Origin: a virus
IMG/VR virus record: IMGVR_UViG_3300022925_000008
Coordinates: 1 to 64,000 of that record
DNA length: 64,000 nt
Strand: one strand, 5' to 3'
Below the pieces are notes generated by a model, which was not told where the DNA came from, did not search any database, and worked only from the letters and a program-made list of their open reading frames with translations. Below are positions 44,470 through 60,954 of this stretch, piece after piece. The stretch's first letter is position 1, and each line of letters opens with the position of its first letter. The translations under genes and the position numbers were made by a program.

Positions 44470-44613
44470 TTATTTGCCTTGCCCTCTATATTTTTTATAA
44501 TTTGCTTTCTTCTTCTTGTTCATAGAAGACGTGTTGAAGTGTCCTCTGCCAATAGAAGTTCCTTTGGGTTTGTGCTCAACTTTGGTATTACTAGACGATA
44601 ATGCCTTTGCCAT
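44470..44613 (-). CDS. Small basic conserved T4-like protein (47 aa)
   Basis: Manual ORF ending KGTSIGRGHFNTSSMNKKKKANYKKYRGQGK. Confidence 0.7.
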   Translation of the reverse strand: MAKALSSSNTKVEHKPKGTSIGRGHFNTSSMNKKKKANYKKYRGQGK

Positions 44614-45059
44614 CAGATACTCTCCAACCTAACCATTAGTCGTTCAGCGCGATTGGTCACCTGCTTGTGCCATCGCGAGTCGCGTCCCTCAACTGCGGCT
44701 TCTTTCCAGTCGCCTGCATCGAGTGCAGCGTTGAATTTCTTAAACTTAGACAAACGTGTTCTACCCATGTTGAACATCATGTTGACCACGATCTGTTGGA
44801 CCTCTTCGGGAAAGTTGTCAAACGTCCCTTCGCCGTATAAAGCGTGACACTCACTGATTGAGGTGTCAAGGTCTTTTTCAAAACATTCCCATACTCGTTC
44901 TTCGGAGATTGGTGTTCCGAATTCTTGACCCCATTCGGGATCTTCGTTGATGACAAGGTGCCCCACGCCAAAGGTGTGGTAACCGAGATGGTCTGCATAT
45001 ATTTCATACTTCACACCCTCGTCTACTTTTAGTGTTTCGAAAATTTCTTCACGATTCAT
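44613..45059 (-). CDS. Endolysin, T4-lysozyme-like (GH24)
   Basis: LKVDEG..YADHLGYHTFGVGHL (E-x8-D-x5-T), NMMFNMG and DSRWHKQVTNRA motifs. Confidence 0.92.
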   Translation of the reverse strand: MNREEIFETLKVDEGVKYEIYADHLGYHTFGVGHLVINEDPEWGQEFGTPISEERVWECFEKDLDTSISECHALYGEGTFDNFPEEVQQIVVNMMFNMGRTRLSKFKKFNAALDAGDWKEAAVEGRDSRWHKQVTNRAERLMVRLESI

Positions 45060-53135: not shown

Positions 53136-53295
53136 CACTCTCCGTCTTTAACATTGTCCAAGCACCATAGGCTAGACCTACCCAAGACAACAACTCAGCA
53201 ATACCTCCAAATAGTATTACAGAACCACATACAGCAATGAGCATACCTCCGTCCCATGTTGTACGTTCCCCTAAAAGTTTTTTAACTAAAGACAT
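53128..53295 (-). CDS. Small two-TM membrane protein (55 aa)
   Basis: Manual ORF with ERTTWDG and two hydrophobic helices. Confidence 0.7.
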   Translation of the reverse strand: MSLVKKLLGERTTWDGGMLIAVCGSVILFGGIAELLSWVGLAYGAWTMLKTESDD

Positions 53296-54064
53296 TTTGA
53301 TCTCCCGTCCAATTTTCTAAATGTTTAATGTACTCGCCGATACTATGATCACTAAAACTATCAATCTTACCTTGCTTCAACCCCATCCAGATACCTCTTA
53401 GTTTATCTTTGACTTTTTGCCATTGAGTTAACTGTCTCACTTGACCGTAAGCATTGATATAACATGCTGTGCCGTGATGCTTGTATCCTAAAAATGCAGG
53501 CGGCACTGTAGTGACGATATCGTTATTATTTCTCCAACGATAATGTGTAACGGGTAAACTCTTGCAATATTTATTCCATCCCACTCGAGGTGATCCGTAT
53601 GTATACAATTCTTCTACTACAGTGTCTTCTAAAGTTTCGTCAAGAGTGCACCGAGCAGCAACAATAGTTGCCATAGCGGCACCCAGACTATGCCCAGTAA
53701 CCCAGACCTTGCGTTTACCCAAAACCTTTGGAGTTAAGTCTTCGCGAATCATTGGCCATAGTTCATCAACTTCGGATTTGAAACCTTTGTGTACTCGACT
53801 AACCGTTTCTGATATTACGGGTATTGCAGTTAGGTCTGCTTTAATATCATTCAGTTCTGTTGGCTCTGTTCCTCGACACGCGATTACCATATCATTTTTG
53901 TTTTGAAACCTATATGCTTGCGCTCCATCCCTGTTGTAAAATTCTACTTGAGTGAATCCTAAAACCTTAACAGCCTTTTTAGCTTCCTTTTCATCCAGAT
54001 AGGCAATGCTGCTGAGTTTTGCAAACAAAAGACTTTTATCTCTATGTGATAGTTCAGATATCAT
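53282..54064 (-). CDS. Lipase class 3 (alpha/beta hydrolase)
   Basis: ACRGTE, VHKGF, VTGHSLGAA (nucleophile), TYGSPRVG, NDIVTTVP and DHSI motifs. Confidence 0.92.
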   Translation of the reverse strand: MISELSHRDKSLLFAKLSSIAYLDEKEAKKAVKVLGFTQVEFYNRDGAQAYRFQNKNDMVIACRGTEPTELNDIKADLTAIPVISETVSRVHKGFKSEVDELWPMIREDLTPKVLGKRKVWVTGHSLGAAMATIVAARCTLDETLEDTVVEELYTYGSPRVGWNKYCKSLPVTHYRWRNNNDIVTTVPPAFLGYKHHGTACYINAYGQVRQLTQWQKVKDKLRGIWMGLKQGKIDSFSDHSIGEYIKHLENWTGDQNVFS

Positions 54065-54279
54065 TAGTGGGTCTCCATTTTTAAATTCGTGTTAGGTAAG
54101 GGGCAGTTAGAGTCTCCTTCTTCTCTGCCTCTGATTTGCATATCTACCCAATACAATTCTGCCACTATCTTATGATACCACATGCGATCATACTGATCGT
54201 GACATTTTGCTGCCTCATCTTTAAGGTCTTGCATTCGCATTTCAAGGTAGTCGTGTATCGTGGGTTTATTTCTTTGCAC
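54064..54279 (-). CDS. Hypothetical protein
   Basis: 71 aa, coupled to the lipase. Confidence 0.55.
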   Translation of the reverse strand: MQRNKPTIHDYLEMRMQDLKDEAAKCHDQYDRMWYHKIVAELYWVDMQIRGREEGDSNCPLPNTNLKMETH

Positions 54280-54562
54280 TTGTTTTCTTCTTTAATTCAA
54301 GATCAGCAATACGCGCTTCGAGTTCGTCTATCTTTTTAGTGACTTTAGGATATTTCTTTCGCCACGCTGTGGGATCATCTTGTAACCATTCCCACCCGAA
54401 TTTATCGACAAGTGAATCTAAGAAAAGATCGAATTTAGCATAACACCAAAGTGCCATGTGCGTGTCTTTGAACCATGCTAAGAAAGCAGCACCAAAAACA
54501 GACCCAGCGATAGCTGTGTATATCCACAGCGTATCGCCGAACATAGCAGTTAAAGTTTCCAT
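54266..54562 (-). CDS. Conserved phage membrane protein
   Basis: N-terminal TM; WRKKYPKVTKKIDELEARI motif. Confidence 0.7.
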   Translation of the reverse strand: METLTAMFGDTLWIYTAIAGSVFGAAFLAWFKDTHMALWCYAKFDLFLDSLVDKFGWEWLQDDPTAWRKKYPKVTKKIDELEARIADLELKKKTSAKK

Positions 54563-54589: not shown

Positions 54590-54597
54590 TATTTATA
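54590..54597 (-). promoter_or_regulatory. T4 late promoter TATAAATA
   Basis: Exact consensus 28 nt upstream of ATG 54562. Confidence 0.85.
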
Positions 54598-54951
54598 TCA
54601 CCAGGTGTAACGAATTTCCGTTTCTAATTTAGATTTCAACTGAGAGGCGTTCTTACCTTCGAATTTACCTTTGATAGTGAGGTTTTTATCCCATTTAAAC
54701 TTGTAACCTGCTTCAAAACTATGACCATCCGTCATATGTCCACCTTCGACATAAACCTTACCGAAGTCAGTTTTCTTTTCGAAACCTATTCGTGTATGAT
54801 TCGTAGTATCACCACGATGCATTTGATCATTAAACTTAGTTTCAGATTTGAATTCAATGTATGGGCTTGCCTTAAGATCTAAGCTCAACATCATAAACAG
54901 ACTACCAATCAAAACTACGATAACGATTGTTTCTTTCCAGTTCTTTTTCAT
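54598..54951 (-). CDS. Small secreted beta-rich protein, probable outer-membrane protein
   Basis: Signal peptide, alternating amphipathic strands, C-terminal EIRYTW beta-signal. Confidence 0.65.
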   Translation of the reverse strand: MKKNWKETIVIVVLIGSLFMMLSLDLKASPYIEFKSETKFNDQMHRGDTTNHTRIGFEKKTDFGKVYVEGGHMTDGHSFEAGYKFKWDKNLTIKGKFEGKNASQLKSKLETEIRYTW

Positions 54952-55088
54952 ATTAAGTTCCTTTATAAAAGAATTATTTAGAATAAAGAAACCTAAATTG
55001 TGTTAAGGTCGGATTAATGTTTCGTTAAATTACCACTGCTATGATTATAACAACACAGTTCAACAAAGACCCGCACAGCATTCCTTTT

Positions 55089-55114
55089 AAAAAAAGGGGG
55101 ACCAAAGTCCCCCT
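55089..55114 (-). terminator. Rho-independent terminator AGGGGGAC-TTTG-GTCCCCCT + U tract
   Basis: 8-bp GC-rich stem followed by a T run. Confidence 0.88.
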
Positions 55115-55123
55115 CCCGCTGAG

Positions 55124-55231
55124 TCAGATTATTACAAAACCAAGTAATAGTCCTATGTTTAGTCCAATGCTACACATAAGCATGAACTGGGTCTTATATA
55201 AAACTTCGCGGGAAATAAATTCCCGTTCCAT
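55124..55231 (-). CDS. Small membrane peptide (35 aa)
   Basis: Strong GAGGAGG RBS; C-terminal TM. Confidence 0.6.
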   Translation of the reverse strand: MEREFISREVLYKTQFMLMCSIGLNIGLLLGFVII

Positions 55232-55444
55232 TTAATCCTCCTCATCTAACACGATTAAAGCGATATTTGATTTGTTCAAATGAACCTCAATACCACTCGG
55301 TTGGGTAAAAGGAATGAACTTTCTATCGTCGTTCATAACCCAAGGGATTACGTCCTTGGGTTTCAATGTGGCATAAACCTCATCGTCCCCACTTAACCTA
55401 CCACTAATCGTGCCTCCATTAACAAACGTTACTTTAACACGCAT
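55232..55444 (-). CDS. Small cytoplasmic beta protein (possible Sm-like fold)
   Basis: VKVTFVNGGTISGRL..MNDDRKFIPF..HLNKSNIALI pattern; GGGAG RBS. Confidence 0.6.
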   Translation of the reverse strand: MRVKVTFVNGGTISGRLSGDDEVYATLKPKDVIPWVMNDDRKFIPFTQPSGIEVHLNKSNIALIVLDEED

Positions 55445-55461
55445 GAGTCTGTACTCCCTAT

Positions 55462-55920
55462 CTAGTCAGCGAGAGGGTTGTTCAGCACATTTTGGATCTT
55501 ATCATTTAAGCGTTTTTCAACGGCAGTAATTTTAATCTCCGTGTCTGTCTGTAAACTTTCTCTACGATTGTCAAAACGTTCAGTCGCATTGTCAATCATA
55601 TCTCTGACTTTATCTTCCATATTCCGATTCTGGTCTTCGATTCGATCCACATTTTTCTCCATCCGATTGAAGTCATCTCTCAGATCGTTCTTAATGCTTC
55701 TTGAGTAATCTATCGCTTCATCTAGTTTTGTTTCGATGACATCGTTTCGTGCTGCTATAGCGTCTGTATCGATATTCTGGATTATCTCCTTCATATCCAT
55801 ATAGTCTTTATAGAACTCGAACGCACCCCAAGTTGCACCACCCAATGTGGACAATGCTGTGAGCAAGACCATCATCTTGCCACCCTTGAATGTCATTCCT
55901 CCAAATTCGACTTCTGCCAT
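55462..55920 (-). CDS. Membrane-anchored coiled-coil protein (cassette gene 6)
   Basis: N-terminal TM followed by about 110 aa of heptads; ends NNPLAD. Confidence 0.75.
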   Translation of the reverse strand: MAEVEFGGMTFKGGKMMVLLTALSTLGGATWGAFEFYKDYMDMKEIIQNIDTDAIAARNDVIETKLDEAIDYSRSIKNDLRDDFNRMEKNVDRIEDQNRNMEDKVRDMIDNATERFDNRRESLQTDTEIKITAVEKRLNDKIQNVLNNPLAD

Positions 55921-55923
55921 TTG

Positions 55924-56376
55924 TTACTCCTCATCGTCAGCAAACCGCAAATTGCGTAGCTGAGCGACCTCTGCTTGTAGTCTTTGTATCTCTAGTCTTC
56001 TTCTTTCTAGTTCCAGCTTATAGAGAGTGTTACAGTTCAGACGCTCTTTGGGTTTATCAAGCGGAATGGTTAATTTCGCATAAACCCCAACATCCTTGAC
56101 CAATCCATCAGAATCATATCCTGGCGGGTCTTCATAACCTCCTCCGTAGAGGCTGTTATATGGTCCGTTCTGGTTTATAATGCCGACAACGCCAAACTCA
56201 ACGGTGGTAGCACCACCGATAGCGTTCGCACATTCTAATTGACCAGCACGAATCCTGTCTTGTGCGTATGATCCAGACGTATTAGGTAATGCCAAGTTCA
56301 AAGAACTCGACTCCGCTAATGCTTGTTCACACGCAACTATCAATAACACCAATACTAATATTCTCATAAGTTTCAT
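55924..56376 (-). CDS. Secreted protein with beta-hairpin and coiled-coil tail (cassette gene 5)
   Basis: Signal peptide (ALA|ES), two mature Cys, TVEFGVVG and VGVYAKLTIPL strands; ATGA overlap with the upstream gene. Confidence 0.75.
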   Translation of the reverse strand: MKLMRILVLVLLIVACEQALAESSSLNLALPNTSGSYAQDRIRAGQLECANAIGGATTVEFGVVGIINQNGPYNSLYGGGYEDPPGYDSDGLVKDVGVYAKLTIPLDKPKERLNCNTLYKLELERRRLEIQRLQAEVAQLRNLRFADDEE

Positions 56377-56753
56377 TTCACTTTCGAGCAAATCCTCGAA
56401 TTCAATATTGATTTCGTAGATCCGTCTTGAAGAGTGAGAGACTTAGTGCAAATATAAGTTACTCTATCTCTGTTACTCTTCTGAATATAGACATCAAATC
56501 TCTTTGTATCAAGATACTCTACATTAATTACATTCCCGCCCGTAACAATGAATGGAATTTTATTCCAATCGTTGTCATAGACGCCTACTCTATAAAAACG
56601 AATATCCTCACGTTTATTGAAGAGTTTCATACTTGCTTTTACTACACCATCCGTATAAGCGGTTTCCAACTTAGGATATGTGGGAGTAAAATCGTGGGCA
56701 AGCGAGGCTTGCCCACTTAGTAATGTAACCAACAATAACATGATCTGTTTCAT
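56373..56753 (-). CDS. Secreted Ig-like protein, putative pilus-chaperone-like (cassette gene 4)
   Basis: Signal peptide (SLA|HD), MKLFNKREDIRFYRVGV strand pattern, ICT..ICS Cys pair. Confidence 0.65.
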   Translation of the reverse strand: MKQIMLLLVTLLSGQASLAHDFTPTYPKLETAYTDGVVKASMKLFNKREDIRFYRVGVYDNDWNKIPFIVTGGNVINVEYLDTKRFDVYIQKSNRDRVTYICTKSLTLQDGSTKSILNSRICSKVK

Positions 56754-56764
56754 ATGATTTTCCC

Positions 56765-57268
56765 TTAAATAGCGATACACTCGGCAGTTACTACTGCTTG
56801 GTATTGACCTCCAGGAAATGCCTTTCCGTATCCATAGTCTGCTTCTGATTCTACTTTAAACCACGTAGATCCAGCAATAGACAAGTCTACTTCAGTAACG
56901 TTATCATACTCTACTTTACTCGTATCATAGGCAGACATCCCAGCGTCTGATACTTGATCAACTGATGTAGCACCAGTCCAAGTTACAGTGTCGCTAAGAG
57001 CAGGAGACTCGGTAAAGGAAGTAGGGTGAGAAATCTTTGCCATATAATAATCAGCTTGGATTACATCAAACCGTACAACCGGATGCACACCGCCTGATGC
57101 CGTTGCCGTAGACAACGATTCAGGGGTTGAGTTACCGTAAACTCCAGCAGTGTCTTGCGTTACGATACACTTAGATTCCACAGTACCACTAATGGGAATC
57201 TCTTCCGCAAACGCACTAGCACAAAAGGTCAACAATACCGCCAATGATGAAAGTGTTTTATTGAACAT
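56765..57268 (-). CDS. Secreted pilin/fimbrial-subunit-like protein (cassette gene 3)
   Basis: Signal peptide (AFA|EE), IPISGTVESKC first strand and FPGGQYQAVVTAEC last strand. Confidence 0.65.
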   Translation of the reverse strand: MFNKTLSSLAVLLTFCASAFAEEIPISGTVESKCIVTQDTAGVYGNSTPESLSTATASGGVHPVVRFDVIQADYYMAKISHPTSFTESPALSDTVTWTGATSVDQVSDAGMSAYDTSKVEYDNVTEVDLSIAGSTWFKVESEADYGYGKAFPGGQYQAVVTAECIAI

Positions 57269-57293
57269 TATTATGTTCTCCCTTTTTGTTTGT

Positions 57294-58184
57294 TTACTTT
57301 CCATACTGTAGTCGGACCATCTCTGCGTGTCGGAGTTCCGACGCGAAAGACTGTCTCAATCCTCGTGTGTTCTTCGGCAATTCCTTTCCGGTGGGTAAAG
57401 ACCCGCCAGCAAGTTCGCCGCCGAACAGTTGAGTCTGGTAAGATATTGGCAGTGCCTTTAATGCCATTATCTGCGAATGAATAAGTTCTTGCTCTTGAGA
57501 CATCGTGTTTTCAATCACCATGCCCAGTAATTGTTCCAATCTTTCATCTACTTCTTCTAATGCTTCTTTTGCCTTTGCTCTCGCCTTTTCCTTTTCGTCT
57601 TCATCTTGTGCTTTCATATTTGCTTTACGATCTAATTCATTCTGCACTAAATCGTCTTCAAGTGGATCATAAACGTCCACTTCATTTAACTCTATCACAA
57701 ACGGATCTTGATAGCCTGGACACTGAGGGTTTGACTGAGGATCAAAACAAGGGTCAAACTTATAAGAATAGAATACTTCGGGGTCCTTTACTGTCCCGAA
57801 ACCTTCCACTTCTATAGATCCTCTACCCCAATACGATATGTCTAAAAAATCTACAGGAACTGCCTTACTGATAGAATTCCCAGGTATACCAGACCAATCG
57901 TCGGATGATCTAAAAATATATCCAGCACCACGTGCGTTCTCATTCTGCACGTGTACGATCATAGGATCTTCTGCATTCTTCTCAGTCGTATAACGATACA
58001 CAACGCCACTGACTTGTAGTCCTGCCTGTTGAGGCAGCACATTAGTCATCACCCAATTCAAACCGAACTGAGCAGCGTTGTTGGTTGTACCGAATTTAGT
58101 GCTTGTGTCAAATTCTTCAGATAAGGAGTAGCAAGAGTAACCCAGCAACACCAGCACCGCCAAGCAGTGTTTTAGTACCTTCAT
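57294..58184 (-). CDS. Secreted multi-domain protein (cassette gene 2)
   Basis: Signal peptide, beta-rich N-domain, CFDPQSNPQC, acidic coiled coil, HAEMVRLQY tail. Confidence 0.72.
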   Translation of the reverse strand: MKVLKHCLAVLVLLGYSCYSLSEEFDTSTKFGTTNNAAQFGLNWVMTNVLPQQAGLQVSGVVYRYTTEKNAEDPMIVHVQNENARGAGYIFRSSDDWSGIPGNSISKAVPVDFLDISYWGRGSIEVEGFGTVKDPEVFYSYKFDPCFDPQSNPQCPGYQDPFVIELNEVDVYDPLEDDLVQNELDRKANMKAQDEDEKEKARAKAKEALEEVDERLEQLLGMVIENTMSQEQELIHSQIMALKALPISYQTQLFGGELAGGSLPTGKELPKNTRGLRQSFASELRHAEMVRLQYGK

Positions 58185-58680
58185 TCATCCCTTCCTTTTC
58201 TTTAACTCCTGGTTGAGACTCTTCATCGGTAACCCATGCTGCTTTTGCTTGATCACCAATAAGTCCATCATATGGACATGGTGTTCCTGCCATCATCATC
58301 GCGTCAAAGACTCGTTTGTCTTGACACATAGTAGAAACTGCCGCAACCTTCATACCCATATCATACAAGGTTTTGGACAGTTTGAGTCGTTCGCAGTTCT
58401 CATCGGTAACTTGCGTTCCCGTTGAGATACCTAGAATTTGTGTTTGTATTGCTCCTGCCACACCAAACGTACACAAGTCTGAATTAGACGTGTTGATAGT
58501 CGGCGTGATAGCAGATGCTGGGGGAGACTTCAACGTTGTAGTTGAGGTCGAGTTTGTATTCACATTACTGTCTGTGATAGATTCAGTTCTTATTGTGTCA
58601 TCAGGCAGAGTCGCTTCTTCACCATATGTCACACTCGCACAGAAAGCCATAACAAAGAATAGTAAGTATCGCATCACCAT
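58117..58680 (-). CDS. Secreted Cys-rich protein with C-terminal membrane anchor (cassette gene 1)
   Basis: Signal peptide, Thr/Ser linker, four mature Cys, C-terminal GGAGVAGLLLLLI. Confidence 0.75.
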   Translation of the reverse strand: MVMRYLLFFVMAFCASVTYGEEATLPDDTIRTESITDSNVNTNSTSTTTLKSPPASAITPTINTSNSDLCTFGVAGAIQTQILGISTGTQVTDENCERLKLSKTLYDMGMKVAAVSTMCQDKRVFDAMMMAGTPCPYDGLIGDQAKAAWVTDEESQPGVKEKEGMNEGTKTLLGGAGVAGLLLLLLI

Positions 58681-58702
58681 ATCCTAGTTATAATATCAGT
58701 GT

Positions 58703-58710
58703 TATTTATA
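58703..58710 (-). promoter_or_regulatory. T4 late promoter TATAAATA driving the secreted-protein cassette
   Basis: Exact consensus 23 nt upstream of ATG 58680. Confidence 0.85.
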
Positions 58711-58951: not shown

Positions 58952-60522
58952 TAGTCTTCAACCCATGTTAATGCTAAAGCCACTCTACTAATTGCCTGAG
59001 ATGAGAATACCACCGCAGAAATATTGTGATTGGGGGGAACTGCTATTCTAAGATCCGTTAGATCTACGCTACTGTTACCTCCTCCTGGAACATCTACAAC
59101 ATAAACAGGAAGATTATTACCTAATGTTACCGAACCAGTAGTAGTTGAATAATAAACAGAAGAGAATTCATCAGATTGTGTGGTGTACTCAAGATCAGGT
59201 AATGCATCAAAATCATAAAAGAGAATAACTGTTACTGGCGCTGATGAAGTTGTAGTAAATGAAGCATTAATGTTCTTGAGCAGAACTTCTCGAGTGTTGA
59301 TTTTTCCACCATATACCAGACGATTGTGAACAGTCAGTGCATGATGATAAGTATTATTTGATAAATTACCAGCAGGGTTATAAGAAATATTGGCTGCGAC
59401 AGGAAGTTTTGTATTTTGTATCAATCCTTCAATCCCACCCATCATTGACGCACCTTCAACAACAACGTTGGTTCCGCTACCGCCTAGACTAGCAGCAACG
59501 TATCCGATTTTCAAAGAAGGATTATCAATATGTACATCAATATTTTGATTAGAGTAATGAATATGATGAAAGAAAATCATATCACCGTTTATGGGATTCT
59601 CAATAGCAAATCTCAACTCACCCGCGCCTAACCAACGAAAATTAATTTGAAAGATGTTCAATTTAGTGGGATCAATAACGACAGTGGAAGCACCATTCCC
59701 ATCCAACGTATCAATATTGAAACTCTGTTGAGGAATCCAAGTGTCAGTATGAGCAACGCCTGCTTGCGGATTTGTTACAGTAGCAGTTACGCCTGTTGCG
59801 CCCGTGTCTGTAAAATTAAATGCACCTGCTTTAGGACCAACTGCAGTTGCCAAAAAACAAACTTTAGTACCAGAGTACTCTACAATCCAATTAGAATTTC
59901 CAGCAAAAGCATCAGCGATTTTACGTGCCACAGTAGCAATAGTATCCGCAGCTGTAATTGCTACAACAGTGTCTACACCATCTAATGTAATTGTAATGTT
60001 TCCTGTTCCAATGGCTGCAGCAGTGATAGTGAAATTGGAGATGTATGCTTTACCACCGTTCTGTAAAAGAACTCCGAACTGCTCTCCATCGTATCCTACT
60101 TGTAATGCTTGTTCTTGCGCGAAGAATCCCGCACGTTGAGTATATCCAGCAACGCCAGGAGAGAACTTGGCAGTGAATCGTGAGACAGCGCCTTGGCCAG
60201 GACGATAACGAACAGCACGAGCAGAACGAATAACACCGTACCCACCAATAGATGTTCCTGTAGAACATTGCATTAACGTATTAGTGGTTGTGGCAGCACC
60301 ACCTGTAGCAGTAAATGTTTCAAACTGCCTTGGATCTAATCCGTACAATCCATCTAGTTGTAATACAGGAGTGATGGGAATAGCAATTGCTTCCCCAAAC
60401 GCAGAATTAGACGTAGCACCAGGAGTGATAATATTTCCATATTGATCTGCCTGCATCTGGACTTCATATAAGGCATTGTTGTTCCTTAATAAAGTCTGTT
60501 TATTTACGTCTAATTGTGCCAT
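58951..60522 (-). CDS. Putative virion structural / fibre-like beta-rich protein
   Basis: YRPGQG..RFTA, DTLDGNG..IDPTKLNIFQINFRWLGAG motifs; Thr/Gly/Ala-rich insert. Confidence 0.6.
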   Translation of the reverse strand: MAQLDVNKQTLLRNNNALYEVQMQADQYGNIITPGATSNSAFGEAIAIPITPVLQLDGLYGLDPRQFETFTATGGAATTTNTLMQCSTGTSIGGYGVIRSARAVRYRPGQGAVSRFTAKFSPGVAGYTQRAGFFAQEQALQVGYDGEQFGVLLQNGGKAYISNFTITAAAIGTGNITITLDGVDTVVAITAADTIATVARKIADAFAGNSNWIVEYSGTKVCFLATAVGPKAGAFNFTDTGATGVTATVTNPQAGVAHTDTWIPQQSFNIDTLDGNGASTVVIDPTKLNIFQINFRWLGAGELRFAIENPINGDMIFFHHIHYSNQNIDVHIDNPSLKIGYVAASLGGSGTNVVVEGASMMGGIEGLIQNTKLPVAANISYNPAGNLSNNTYHHALTVHNRLVYGGKINTREVLLKNINASFTTTSSAPVTVILFYDFDALPDLEYTTQSDEFSSVYYSTTTGSVTLGNNLPVYVVDVPGGGNSSVDLTDLRIAVPPNHNISAVVFSSQAISRVALALTWVED

Positions 60523-60863
60523 TAATCTTTCTTCCTACTCCCGACAGCGTCCGCTGCAAAGAAGGCAGAGACAAGTACGGCGATTGATGCAAAATATGTT
60601 GGAGCAATGTCAGCAATTAATTTTGCTGCTTGGTCCAACCCAAACATATCAGTAAGGAAAATTCCAAACGGATATAACAATAACCCGACCAACGAGAACC
60701 ACGCCATCTTACGAATGGCATCGCGTTGTGCGTCTTGATCTTCAAGCTCTTTTCTTTTAAACTCAAGGTTCATATGTGCTTCCAACTCTTCCATAGAGAT
60801 GTGTCCATCTCCATTAGTGTCGGCAGCTTCTAACGCTTCATCAACTGTTTTCTTTGTCGCCAT
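60522..60863 (-). CDS. EF-hand-containing two-TM membrane protein (holin candidate)
   Basis: Start MATKK; canonical loop DTNGDGHISMEE, then two hydrophobic helices and a basic C-terminus. Confidence 0.7.
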   Translation of the reverse strand: MATKKTVDEALEAADTNGDGHISMEELEAHMNLEFKRKELEDQDAQRDAIRKMAWFSLVGLLLYPFGIFLTDMFGLDQAAKLIADIAPTYFASIAVLVSAFFAADAVGSRKKD

Positions 60864-60954
60864 CTTCTTGCTCTCCTTCCGTTTCATCTGTATAATGATT
60901 TTTCCAATCATGATGAAGGGGAGCGACCTTAGTAACGGGTGCTTCAAATAACAT
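60841..60954 (-). CDS. Possible small acidic peptide (37 aa)
   Basis: Fills the intergenic gap; no motif recognised. Confidence 0.3.
   Translation of the reverse strand: MLFEAPVTKVAPLHHDWKNHYTDETEGEQEDGDKENS

Follow-up and report, generated by a model that had tools for sequence, protein, structure and literature searches.

The first 64,000 nt (64 kb) of IMG/VR virus record IMGVR_UViG_3300022925_000008, referred to below as the window, carry an operon of eight minus-strand genes, g1 to g8, and six of these (g1–g6) make up a real, virus-specific and mobile cassette. We read the cassette, tentatively and with a confidence that stops a little short of even, as a lysis-associated envelope module that spans the periplasm and has gained an added chaperone/subunit-like set; its reading as a canonical pilus is rejected. 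The whole record runs to 131,197 bp and is estimated to be about 73% complete. Its source is an uncultured marine T4-like myovirus, and genes for baseplate wedge, hub-lysozyme and ribonucleotide reductase are found in it.

The eight genes lie tightly coupled between a T4-type late promoter motif, TATAAATA, and an intrinsic terminator with a fold energy of -19.4 kcal/mol (Table 1). The gaps between them, taken in order from g1 to g8, are -68, 25, 11, -4, 3, 17 and 0 nt. The motif occurs nine times in the window, against 4.8 expected; seven of the eight minus-strand copies stand 1-30 nt before an ATG, and 35 of the 68 distinct homologous loci retain a copy no more than 160 nt upstream of g1. For g3, g4 and g5 the longest open reading frames begin earlier than the true starts, which are internal ATGs at 57268, 56753 and 56376. 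A preliminary description of this DNA had portrayed a late-promoter operon of exported proteins, bounded by TATAAATA and a terminator, with eight tightly coupled genes, five consecutive Sec signal peptides, an even number of cysteines in each of the five mature chains, a C-terminal anchor on g1, a membrane coiled coil in g6 and a transmembrane peptide in g8. As a description it is accurate, since the promoter, the terminator, the genes, the signal peptides, the Cys counts and the anchors were all confirmed.

Table 1. Operon elements and gene products, with positions in the window
Feature	Position	Strand	Description
Late promoter motif, T4-type TATAAATA	58703..58710	-	22 nt 5' of the g1 ATG
g1, 187 aa	58117..58680	-	signal peptide, Thr/Ser-rich linker, highly conserved four-Cys domain, C-terminal membrane anchor; member of the older trio
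g2, 296 aa	57294..58184	-	signal peptide; conserved, beta-rich domain bearing a Cys pair; acidic coiled linker; helical C-terminal region
g3, 167 aa	56765..57268	-	signal peptide and Ig-like beta-sandwich; pilin/adhesin-like subunit
g4, 126 aa	56373..56753	-	signal peptide and single PapD/MSP-like beta-sandwich
g5, 150 aa	55924..56376	-	signal peptide, small beta-rich part with Cys pair, C-terminal amphipathic helix; ATGA overlap with g4
g6, 152 aa	55462..55920	-	N-terminal transmembrane segment, periplasmic coiled coil, conserved C-terminal NPLAD motif; i-spanin-like architecture; member of the older trio
g7, 70 aa	55232..55444	-	small soluble protein; closer relatives only (23/86 loci)
g8, 35 aa	55124..55231	-	single-transmembrane peptide; closer relatives only (11/86 loci)
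Intrinsic terminator	55090..55117	-	11-bp GC-rich stem 55097-55117, U7 down to 55090

The products of g1 to g5 begin with Sec signal peptides of the n/h/c type, ending in predicted AxA-type cleavage sites for signal peptidase I, and this layout is kept in all homologues. Their mature chains contain 4, 2, 2, 2 and 2 cysteines, respectively, each of which is an invariant column of its alignment: C70, C96, C119 and C135 in g1, C146 and C155 in g2, C34 and C164 in g3, C102 and C122 in g4, and C49 and C115 in g5. The four-Cys domain of g1 is conserved to an unusual degree (63% mean column identity, about 50 invariant columns), and the hydrophobic anchor at its C-terminus is also conserved among homologues. 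The hydrophobic segment of g6 comprises residues 16-34, and the remainder of the protein matches coiled-coil families only. Mature g4 starts with a nearly invariant His and ends in SRICSKVK, while g3 has a 12-residue N-terminal extension with alternating hydrophobic residues and an invariant G28 and V30. In sequence, the proteins resemble little that has been named. Searches of Pfam, PHROGs and NCBIfam with g1 to g8 gave no match except phrog_20531, to which no function is assigned, for g1; Pfam had no match to any member of the g3 and g4 alignments (65 members in the case of g4); profile searches of PDB sequences with the alignments of g1 to g5 found nothing; and g5 has neither a family lead nor a usable match in the ESM Atlas. 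A predicted complex of g1 (residues 50-165), g2 (25-296) and g6 (38-152) scored 0.00, which is uninformative either way.

The end of g1, encoding the membrane anchor, and the start of g2, encoding the signal peptide, overlap by 68 nt (58117-58184). The overlap is kept in most relatives and is mirrored in phage HTVC115P, where gp53 overlaps gp54.

That the genes should be conserved together had been an expectation of the preliminary description, and for g1–g6 it was borne out. The six genes are colinear in 20 and then in 80 IMG/VR loci wherever the contig is long enough, with flanks that differ between loci. Counted over 86 loci, g2 is present in 86, g1 in 85, g3 in 83, g4 in 79, g5 in 78, g6 in 73, g7 in 23 and g8 in 11, and g3 and g4 are always adjacent. 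The block is also confined to viruses: g2, of which there are more than 460 unnamed homologues, is encoded on at least 569 IMG/VR contigs as against only six contigs of metagenome-assembled genomes, among 185,579 species genomes. None of 50,697 GenBank phage records contains g2. About 20 related loci (e.g., L053:3652-4128 and L106:4898-5365) hold an extra gene between g5 and g6, whose product is in some a 158-aa phrog_32327 protein and in others a protein of 155 aa that weakly matches BTLCP peptidases, so the interval from g2 to g6 appears to be a hot spot for insertion.

Evidence concerning function comes from phages that have part of the cassette. The only DNA-level match of the operon in GenBank phages is the Cys-rich domain of g1, in Pelagibacter podophages. 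Hidden Markov models built from the cassette alignments extended this to g1 homologues in HTVC115P, HTVC023P, Mosig, HTVC202P, EXVC032P, CRP-207, CRP-810, RSP15 and MW202481, and to g6 homologues in HTVC115P (gp49, 1e-35), CRP-810 (gp51, 9.5e-9), MW202481 (3.9e-9) and CRP-207 (gp73, 2.3e-6). In cultured or complete phages, among them phages of Pelagibacter and Roseobacter, homologues of g1 and g6 flank a gene with the layout of g2 (a signal peptide, a beta-rich domain, a long acidic spacer and a helical tail), and g3, g4 and g5 are absent. The trio, given in the order g1, middle gene, g6, consists of gp54 (3e-53), gp53 and gp49 in HTVC115P; gp45, gp46 and gp48 in HTVC023P; 202, 201 and 200 in Pelagimyophage Mosig; gp24-26 in HTVC202P; and 001, 003 and 004 in EXVC032P. 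It is found as well in the roseobacter phages CRP-207 and CRP-810 and in the freshwater podovirus MW202481. The g6 analogues (108-193 aa) share the transmembrane and coiled-coil layout, and every one of them has NPL within its last 2-8 residues. Two of them, CRP-810 gp51 (L111:7219-7641) and CRP-207 gp73 (L115:3292-3873), are labelled "lysozyme" in GenBank. The labels look wrong, as the proteins have no lysozyme domain and consist of a transmembrane segment and a coiled coil that ends in NPL, and they were not used as evidence.

In these relatives the trio keeps company with lysis genes. Directly after the g6 analogue of HTVC023P comes gp49, a Peptidase_M15_3 endolysin (1.3e-14). Among IMG/VR loci of the HTVC023P type (68 distinct loci), the order g1'-g2'-g6' is held in all 44 that reach g6', and in 26 of the 44 an endolysin adjoins the trio, in most cases as the next gene after the g6 analogue. 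The endolysin is of the M15 type in 21 and of the GH24 type in 5, so that two enzyme families share the neighbourhood and, in several loci, the same slot after g6'. In Mosig, the gene directly upstream of the g1 homologue, Mosig_203, encodes a GTA_holin_3TM protein (25.8 bits, above the Pfam cut-off), whose homologue in MW202481 (1e-22) has the trio on one side and a GH24 lysozyme (3e-34) on the other. The full cassette of T4-like phages has such neighbours too: in nine loci a GH24 endolysin gene lies on the same strand within 410 bp upstream of g1, at a distance of only 4-24 bp in four, and these endolysins are 65-76% identical to the source phage's own. Finally, the gene that comes immediately after the g6 analogue in HTVC202P and EXVC032P is that of the large terminase, so that the analogue has the position occupied in T7 by the i-spanin gene 18.5. 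The two-layer structure and the lysis-cassette context hold in cultured phages and in 44 + 86 metagenomic loci. The presence of the trio in lysis cassettes of phages that lack g3, g4 and g5 points to a role in the envelope or in lysis rather than to an adhesive surface fibre.

A very basic protein of 47 aa, ending in KKYRGQGK, is encoded after the GH24 endolysin of the source phage (44470-44613, minus strand; see also L107:2698-2835, minus strand). It is homologous to gp50 of HTVC115P (blastp 1e-8), which lies inside the trio region of that phage, a point in favour of the lysis reading. Similar small basic proteins follow an endolysin or a g6 analogue in HTVC023P (gp50), CRP-810 (gp50/gp49) and CRP-207 (gp71). 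The 47-aa protein may be a cationic lysis peptide that resembles disruptins.

According to the model that we prefer, the cassette would be transcribed late, and Sec would send its products into the host envelope, where two layers may be distinguished, an older trio (g1, g2 and g6) and the g3-g4-g5 set. To the trio, g1 would contribute a Cys-rich periplasmic domain, tail-anchored in this phage in the inner membrane; g2 would add a beta domain, secreted and perhaps replaceable, along with an acidic spacer and a helical tail; and g6 would supply an inner-membrane anchor, a coiled coil in the periplasm and, at its C-terminus, an NPL motif that may serve for docking. The three most likely form a complex that spans the periplasm and performs or times the last step of lysis, the one that opens the envelope, a role like that of a spanin but played without a lipoprotein. 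In T4-like marine myoviruses, g3-g4-g5 would have been inserted between g2 and g6. By analogy with its structural relatives, the one-domain PapD/MSP-like sandwich of g4 probably binds a partner through beta-strand complementation. Together with the Ig-like subunit g3 and with g5, a small disulfide-bonded beta/helix protein, g4 probably accounts for that part of the device which lies in the periplasm or near the outer membrane. That the cassette acts in, or controls, the opening of the envelope is a claim to which we would give not quite an even chance.

The resemblance to spanins (lambda Rz/Rz1, T7 gp18.5/18.7 and T1 gp11) is one of layout and, in relatives, of place. The product of g6 and its analogues have the layout of an i-spanin; g1, with a signal peptide and a C-terminal transmembrane segment, recalls a u-spanin; and in relatives the trio adjoins holin and endolysin genes or precedes the large terminase gene. 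Unlike spanins, however, the cassette has no outer-membrane lipoprotein and no embedded or overlapping gene of the Rz1 type, and it comprises three to six proteins where spanins have one or two. Several facts weigh against a function in lysis. No conserved lipobox is found in the cassette proteins, the Cys residues within the signal peptides of g1, g2, g3 and g5 varying among homologues, which leaves the cassette without the outer-membrane partner of a canonical spanin; and searches of Pfam, PHROGs and NCBIfam with g6 and eight analogues gave no match to a spanin family. Judged by sequence, then, the trio is not a canonical spanin. In the window itself, the endolysin gene (44613-45059) lies about 10 kb from the cassette and no holin was recognised beside the cassette. 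Lysis genes are evidently dispersed in the source phage, as they are in T4. Moreover, comparison of g2 with the C-termini of the podophage middle genes does not demonstrate homology (hhalign E 0.02, probability 2%), so the middle gene is called an analogue of g2 by position and layout. The adjacency of the trio to lysis genes in relatives is no more than contextual evidence, and several of the adjacent loci may share one ancestral arrangement. Lastly, a role in lysis leaves by itself the addition of a PapD-like/Ig-like pair unexplained.

A bolder form of the proposal would make the trio a previously unrecognised class of systems for outer-envelope disruption or lysis control, free of lipoproteins, joined in T4-like phages by a recruited PapD-like pair that works independently of an usher. 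We regard this as unlikely. If it were true, the trio would serve the most abundant marine phages (those of SAR11, of roseobacters and the uncultured T4-like phages), which carry no annotated spanins, and the pair would be the first strand-complementation module of the chaperone-usher type outside pilus assembly and inside a virus.

The preliminary description had offered a different interpretation, a pilus or fibre system akin to chaperone-usher, in which g4 was a chaperone-like immunoglobulin (Ig) protein and g3 a pilin-like subunit. With respect to g4, the interpretation stands in part. Its AlphaFold2 (AF2) model, with a predicted local distance difference test (pLDDT) score of 88.1, is a seven-strand sandwich forming a single domain, the mature chain having about 106 aa. 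A Foldseek search with the model gave 31 matches at E <= 1e-3, nearly all of them MSP/VAP domains and chaperone-usher chaperones, the chaperones (DraB, FaeE, Caf1M, PapD, FimC and SafB) at E values from 1.5e-4 to 1e-3. By VIA the closest was FimC (Z 10.2 over 98 aa, root-mean-square deviation 2.6), along with SafB (9.9), YadV (9.6), CfaA (9.5), PapD (9.2), FaeE (9.0) and CsuC (8.7), all aligning from residue 1 of chaperone domain 1, and the nearest named cluster in the ESM Atlas is PapD_N (score 0.83), although this is a lead only. Likeness to a chaperone is thus supported for the modelled g4 at the level of the fold. The fold is not exclusive, as CsxA, an unrelated Ig-like domain, ties with the chaperones (VIA Z 10.1) and MSP domains equal them (Foldseek E 1.5e-4; VIA Z 8.2-9.4). 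What does not stand is the architecture, for chaperones of this kind have two domains and g4 has one. No two-domain relative of g4 was found, the sole longer relative being a 266-aa singleton.

The case for g3 as a pilin is weak insofar as it depends on the predicted structure. The AF2 model (pLDDT 89.7) is indeed an Ig-like sandwich, with a disulfide that links the first and last strands, and pilins (CfaB, the PapG pilin domain, FimG and FimF) are its top Foldseek matches, but at E >= 2e-3 and template-modelling scores of about 0.4 the matches are weak. VIA prefers the N3 (IgG-like) domains of MSCRAMM adhesins, with Z values of 7-7.8, below 8 and so within the range of noise. A search of BFVD with the model gave no match at E <= 1e-3. 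A profile of g3 run against 1.84 billion representatives recovered 113 entries, fragments for the most part, which form a closed family with no pilin family among them; the most distant full-length relatives, located on contigs of 5 kb or less, have no Pfam match.

As for the chaperone-usher pathway itself, membership fails on two of its defining features, an usher and a chaperone of two domains; the record, as far as sequenced, contains no match to an usher and none to PapD_N. The usher family PF00577 (about 800 aa) gave no match at E <= 0.1 in a six-frame search of the 131-kb record, and PapD_N (PF00345) was absent from it. No other large beta-barrel gene is present, and the largest protein of the cassette is g2, at 296 aa. 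Neither g3 nor g4 is linked by sequence to the PapD_N, PapD_C, Fimbrial or SCPU families (Pfam, hhalign); alignments by hhalign of g4 with FimC and of g3 with FimA were not significant. What the cassette has in common with the pathway (PapD, FimC, Caf1M, CfaA, CsuC) is the s-type Ig fold of domain 1 in g4 (Z 8.7-10.2), the position of g4 right after the gene of a secreted Ig-like subunit with a Cys pair and an N-terminal extension, and proteins that are exported by Sec and act independently of ATP. It differs in having no usher, a chaperone-like protein of one domain instead of two, a subunit whose match to the pilin fold is weak, and four membrane or coiled-coil proteins that are absent from fimbrial operons. 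The MSP/VAP domains, which belong to the same PapD-like superfamily and take up a partner peptide in the form of an extra beta strand, are matched by g4 just as well as the chaperones are. MSP domains, however, are eukaryotic and cytosolic, whereas g4 is secreted, disulfide-bonded and encoded by a phage.

Phage-borne secretion modules are not without precedent. Curli/type VIII secretion modules (CsgG, CsgF, CsgA/B) have been described in pelagiphages, with a proposed role in aggregation or in the timing of lysis (PMC9599517, PMC7029224, PMC9004378). Like the cassette, they are Sec-dependent envelope modules of several genes, found in marine myo- and podophages and transferred from one phage family to another. 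The proteins are nonetheless unrelated, no Csg family in Pfam, NCBIfam or PHROGs matching any cassette protein, and curli has an outer-membrane pore whereas the cassette has none that can be recognised.

A fibre could in principle be built without an usher. In that case g4 would be a minimal PapD-like chaperone and g3 would polymerise by strand exchange, the polymer either staying in the periplasm or being set free when the cell lyses; it might aggregate cells, serve as a decoy for other phages or decorate virions. The match of g4 to domain 1 of nine families of chaperone-usher chaperones from residue 1 and its proximity to the PapD_N cluster (0.83) would be explained, as would the pilins (CfaB, PapG pilin domain, FimG, FimF) that head the Foldseek list of g3, the 12-residue extension of g3 with its alternating hydrophobics and G28/V30, and the fact that g3 and g4 are never separated; the curli modules of pelagiphages would be the precedent (PMC9599517). 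Yet there is neither an usher gene nor one for another large beta barrel, g4 is missing the domain, the second, by which the subunit-binding cleft is formed, no family of longer relatives is seen, and nothing in Pfam or hhalign ties the pair to PapD_N or Fimbrial families. The structural matches themselves are ambiguous, with g3 nearer to MSCRAMM IgG-like domains by VIA (every Z < 8), and with MSP/PapD-like and other Ig-like domains, such as CsxA (Z 10.1), tying with the chaperones for g4. Since, in addition, the oldest part of the cassette does without g3-g5 in cultured phages, we consider such a polymer distinctly unlikely.

Perhaps instead the complex guards the envelope of the infected cell, blocking superinfection or the entry of DNA, masking or destroying a receptor to keep progeny from being wasted on debris, or sensing superinfection so as to delay lysis, in parallel with T4 Imm and Sp, T5 Llp and T4 RI. 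All six proteins face the periplasm. The extreme conservation of the g1 domain is what would be expected if it bound a conserved target of host or phage, and the beta domain in the g2 position is swapped between phage groups as receptor-specific parts are; proteins that time lysis, besides, also reside in lysis cassettes. But exclusion functions usually belong to single small proteins made early, while here there are six co-conserved late genes, and Pfam and PHROGs gave no match to Imm, Sp, RI or Llp. A guard seems to us slightly less probable than a fibre. Hardly credible is the idea that the hydrophobic N-termini are propeptides that target the proteins to capsid or virion for packaging. The cassette does lie among late structural genes, the 523-aa protein encoded upstream being a virion structural protein (phrog_1645), and Glu follows several of the predicted cleavage sites. 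These N-termini nevertheless have the classical n/h/c layout and AxA-type sites, kept across homologues; each mature chain has an even number of invariant cysteines; g1 and g6 have true membrane anchors; and in other phages the trio adjoins holins and endolysins. A module for opening the envelope remains the reading that we prefer, at the strength given above.

Among those gene blocks of aquatic phages that lack an explanation, the cassette is one of the more common, and its g1 homologue alone was confirmed in 93 further stretches from pelagiphages of the HTVC023P type. The literature searched contains no description of the cassette or the trio, nor any description of how phages of SAR11 or other streamlined marine bacteria breach the outer envelope. 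Since the core of the cassette occurs in cultured phage-host pairs (HTVC023P, HTVC115P, Mosig and CRP-207), what was an orphan operon has become a question about lysis that can be tested. The cassette also presents a PapD/MSP-like domain in a virus, and in a setting without an usher.

Sequence close to that of the cassette is present in RNA. Six runs of salt-marsh metatranscriptomes contain 59-79% of the words of the stretch, and in four of them (X8, X10, X12 and X13) RNA contigs cover 55006-57343, from g3 to g8, at a word depth of 35-208, as compared with 0-18 on g1, g2 and the flanks, although contig depth cannot rank genes. One of the contigs terminates at 57419 in adapter sequence. The contigs must come at least partly from a relative, because they continue beyond 55086 into unlike sequence with a different gene start. 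By sequence comparison, then, there is an abundant relative that shares g3-g8 at 95% identity or more. We do not read the pattern as differential expression of g3-g8: the contigs derive at least partly from a relative, their depth cannot rank genes, carry-over of DNA is possible, and no promoter motif was found upstream of g3. The data show only that nearly identical cassette sequence is present in RNA libraries.

Some of the neighbouring genes may also concern the envelope. About 1 kb downstream of the cassette, at 53282-54064 (minus strand), is a gene for a class-3 lipase (PF01764, 6.7e-20), which stands beside the cassette also in loci L024, L025 and L028-L030. The outer membrane is a possible target for a phage lipase encoded near genes of envelope-acting proteins. 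Just past the terminator (54598-54951, minus strand) lies the gene for a small outer-membrane beta-barrel of the cyanophage type (Phage_OMP PF24653, 1.1e-7), and a Phage_OMP protein adjoins the cassette, on either side, in 9 of the 86 loci. Between these two genes, at 54266-54562 (minus strand), is encoded a 98-aa protein whose transmembrane segment at the N-terminus and coiled coil at the C-terminus give it a layout like that of a holin, an antiholin or an i-spanin; it has its own TATAAATA at 54590-54597 and is 96% identical to its counterparts in L028 and L029. On the other side of the operon, at 60522-60947 (minus strand), is a gene for a 141-aa EF-hand protein (PF13202, 6.6e-7), whose family is the commonest in the vicinity of the cassette, occurring in 32 loci.

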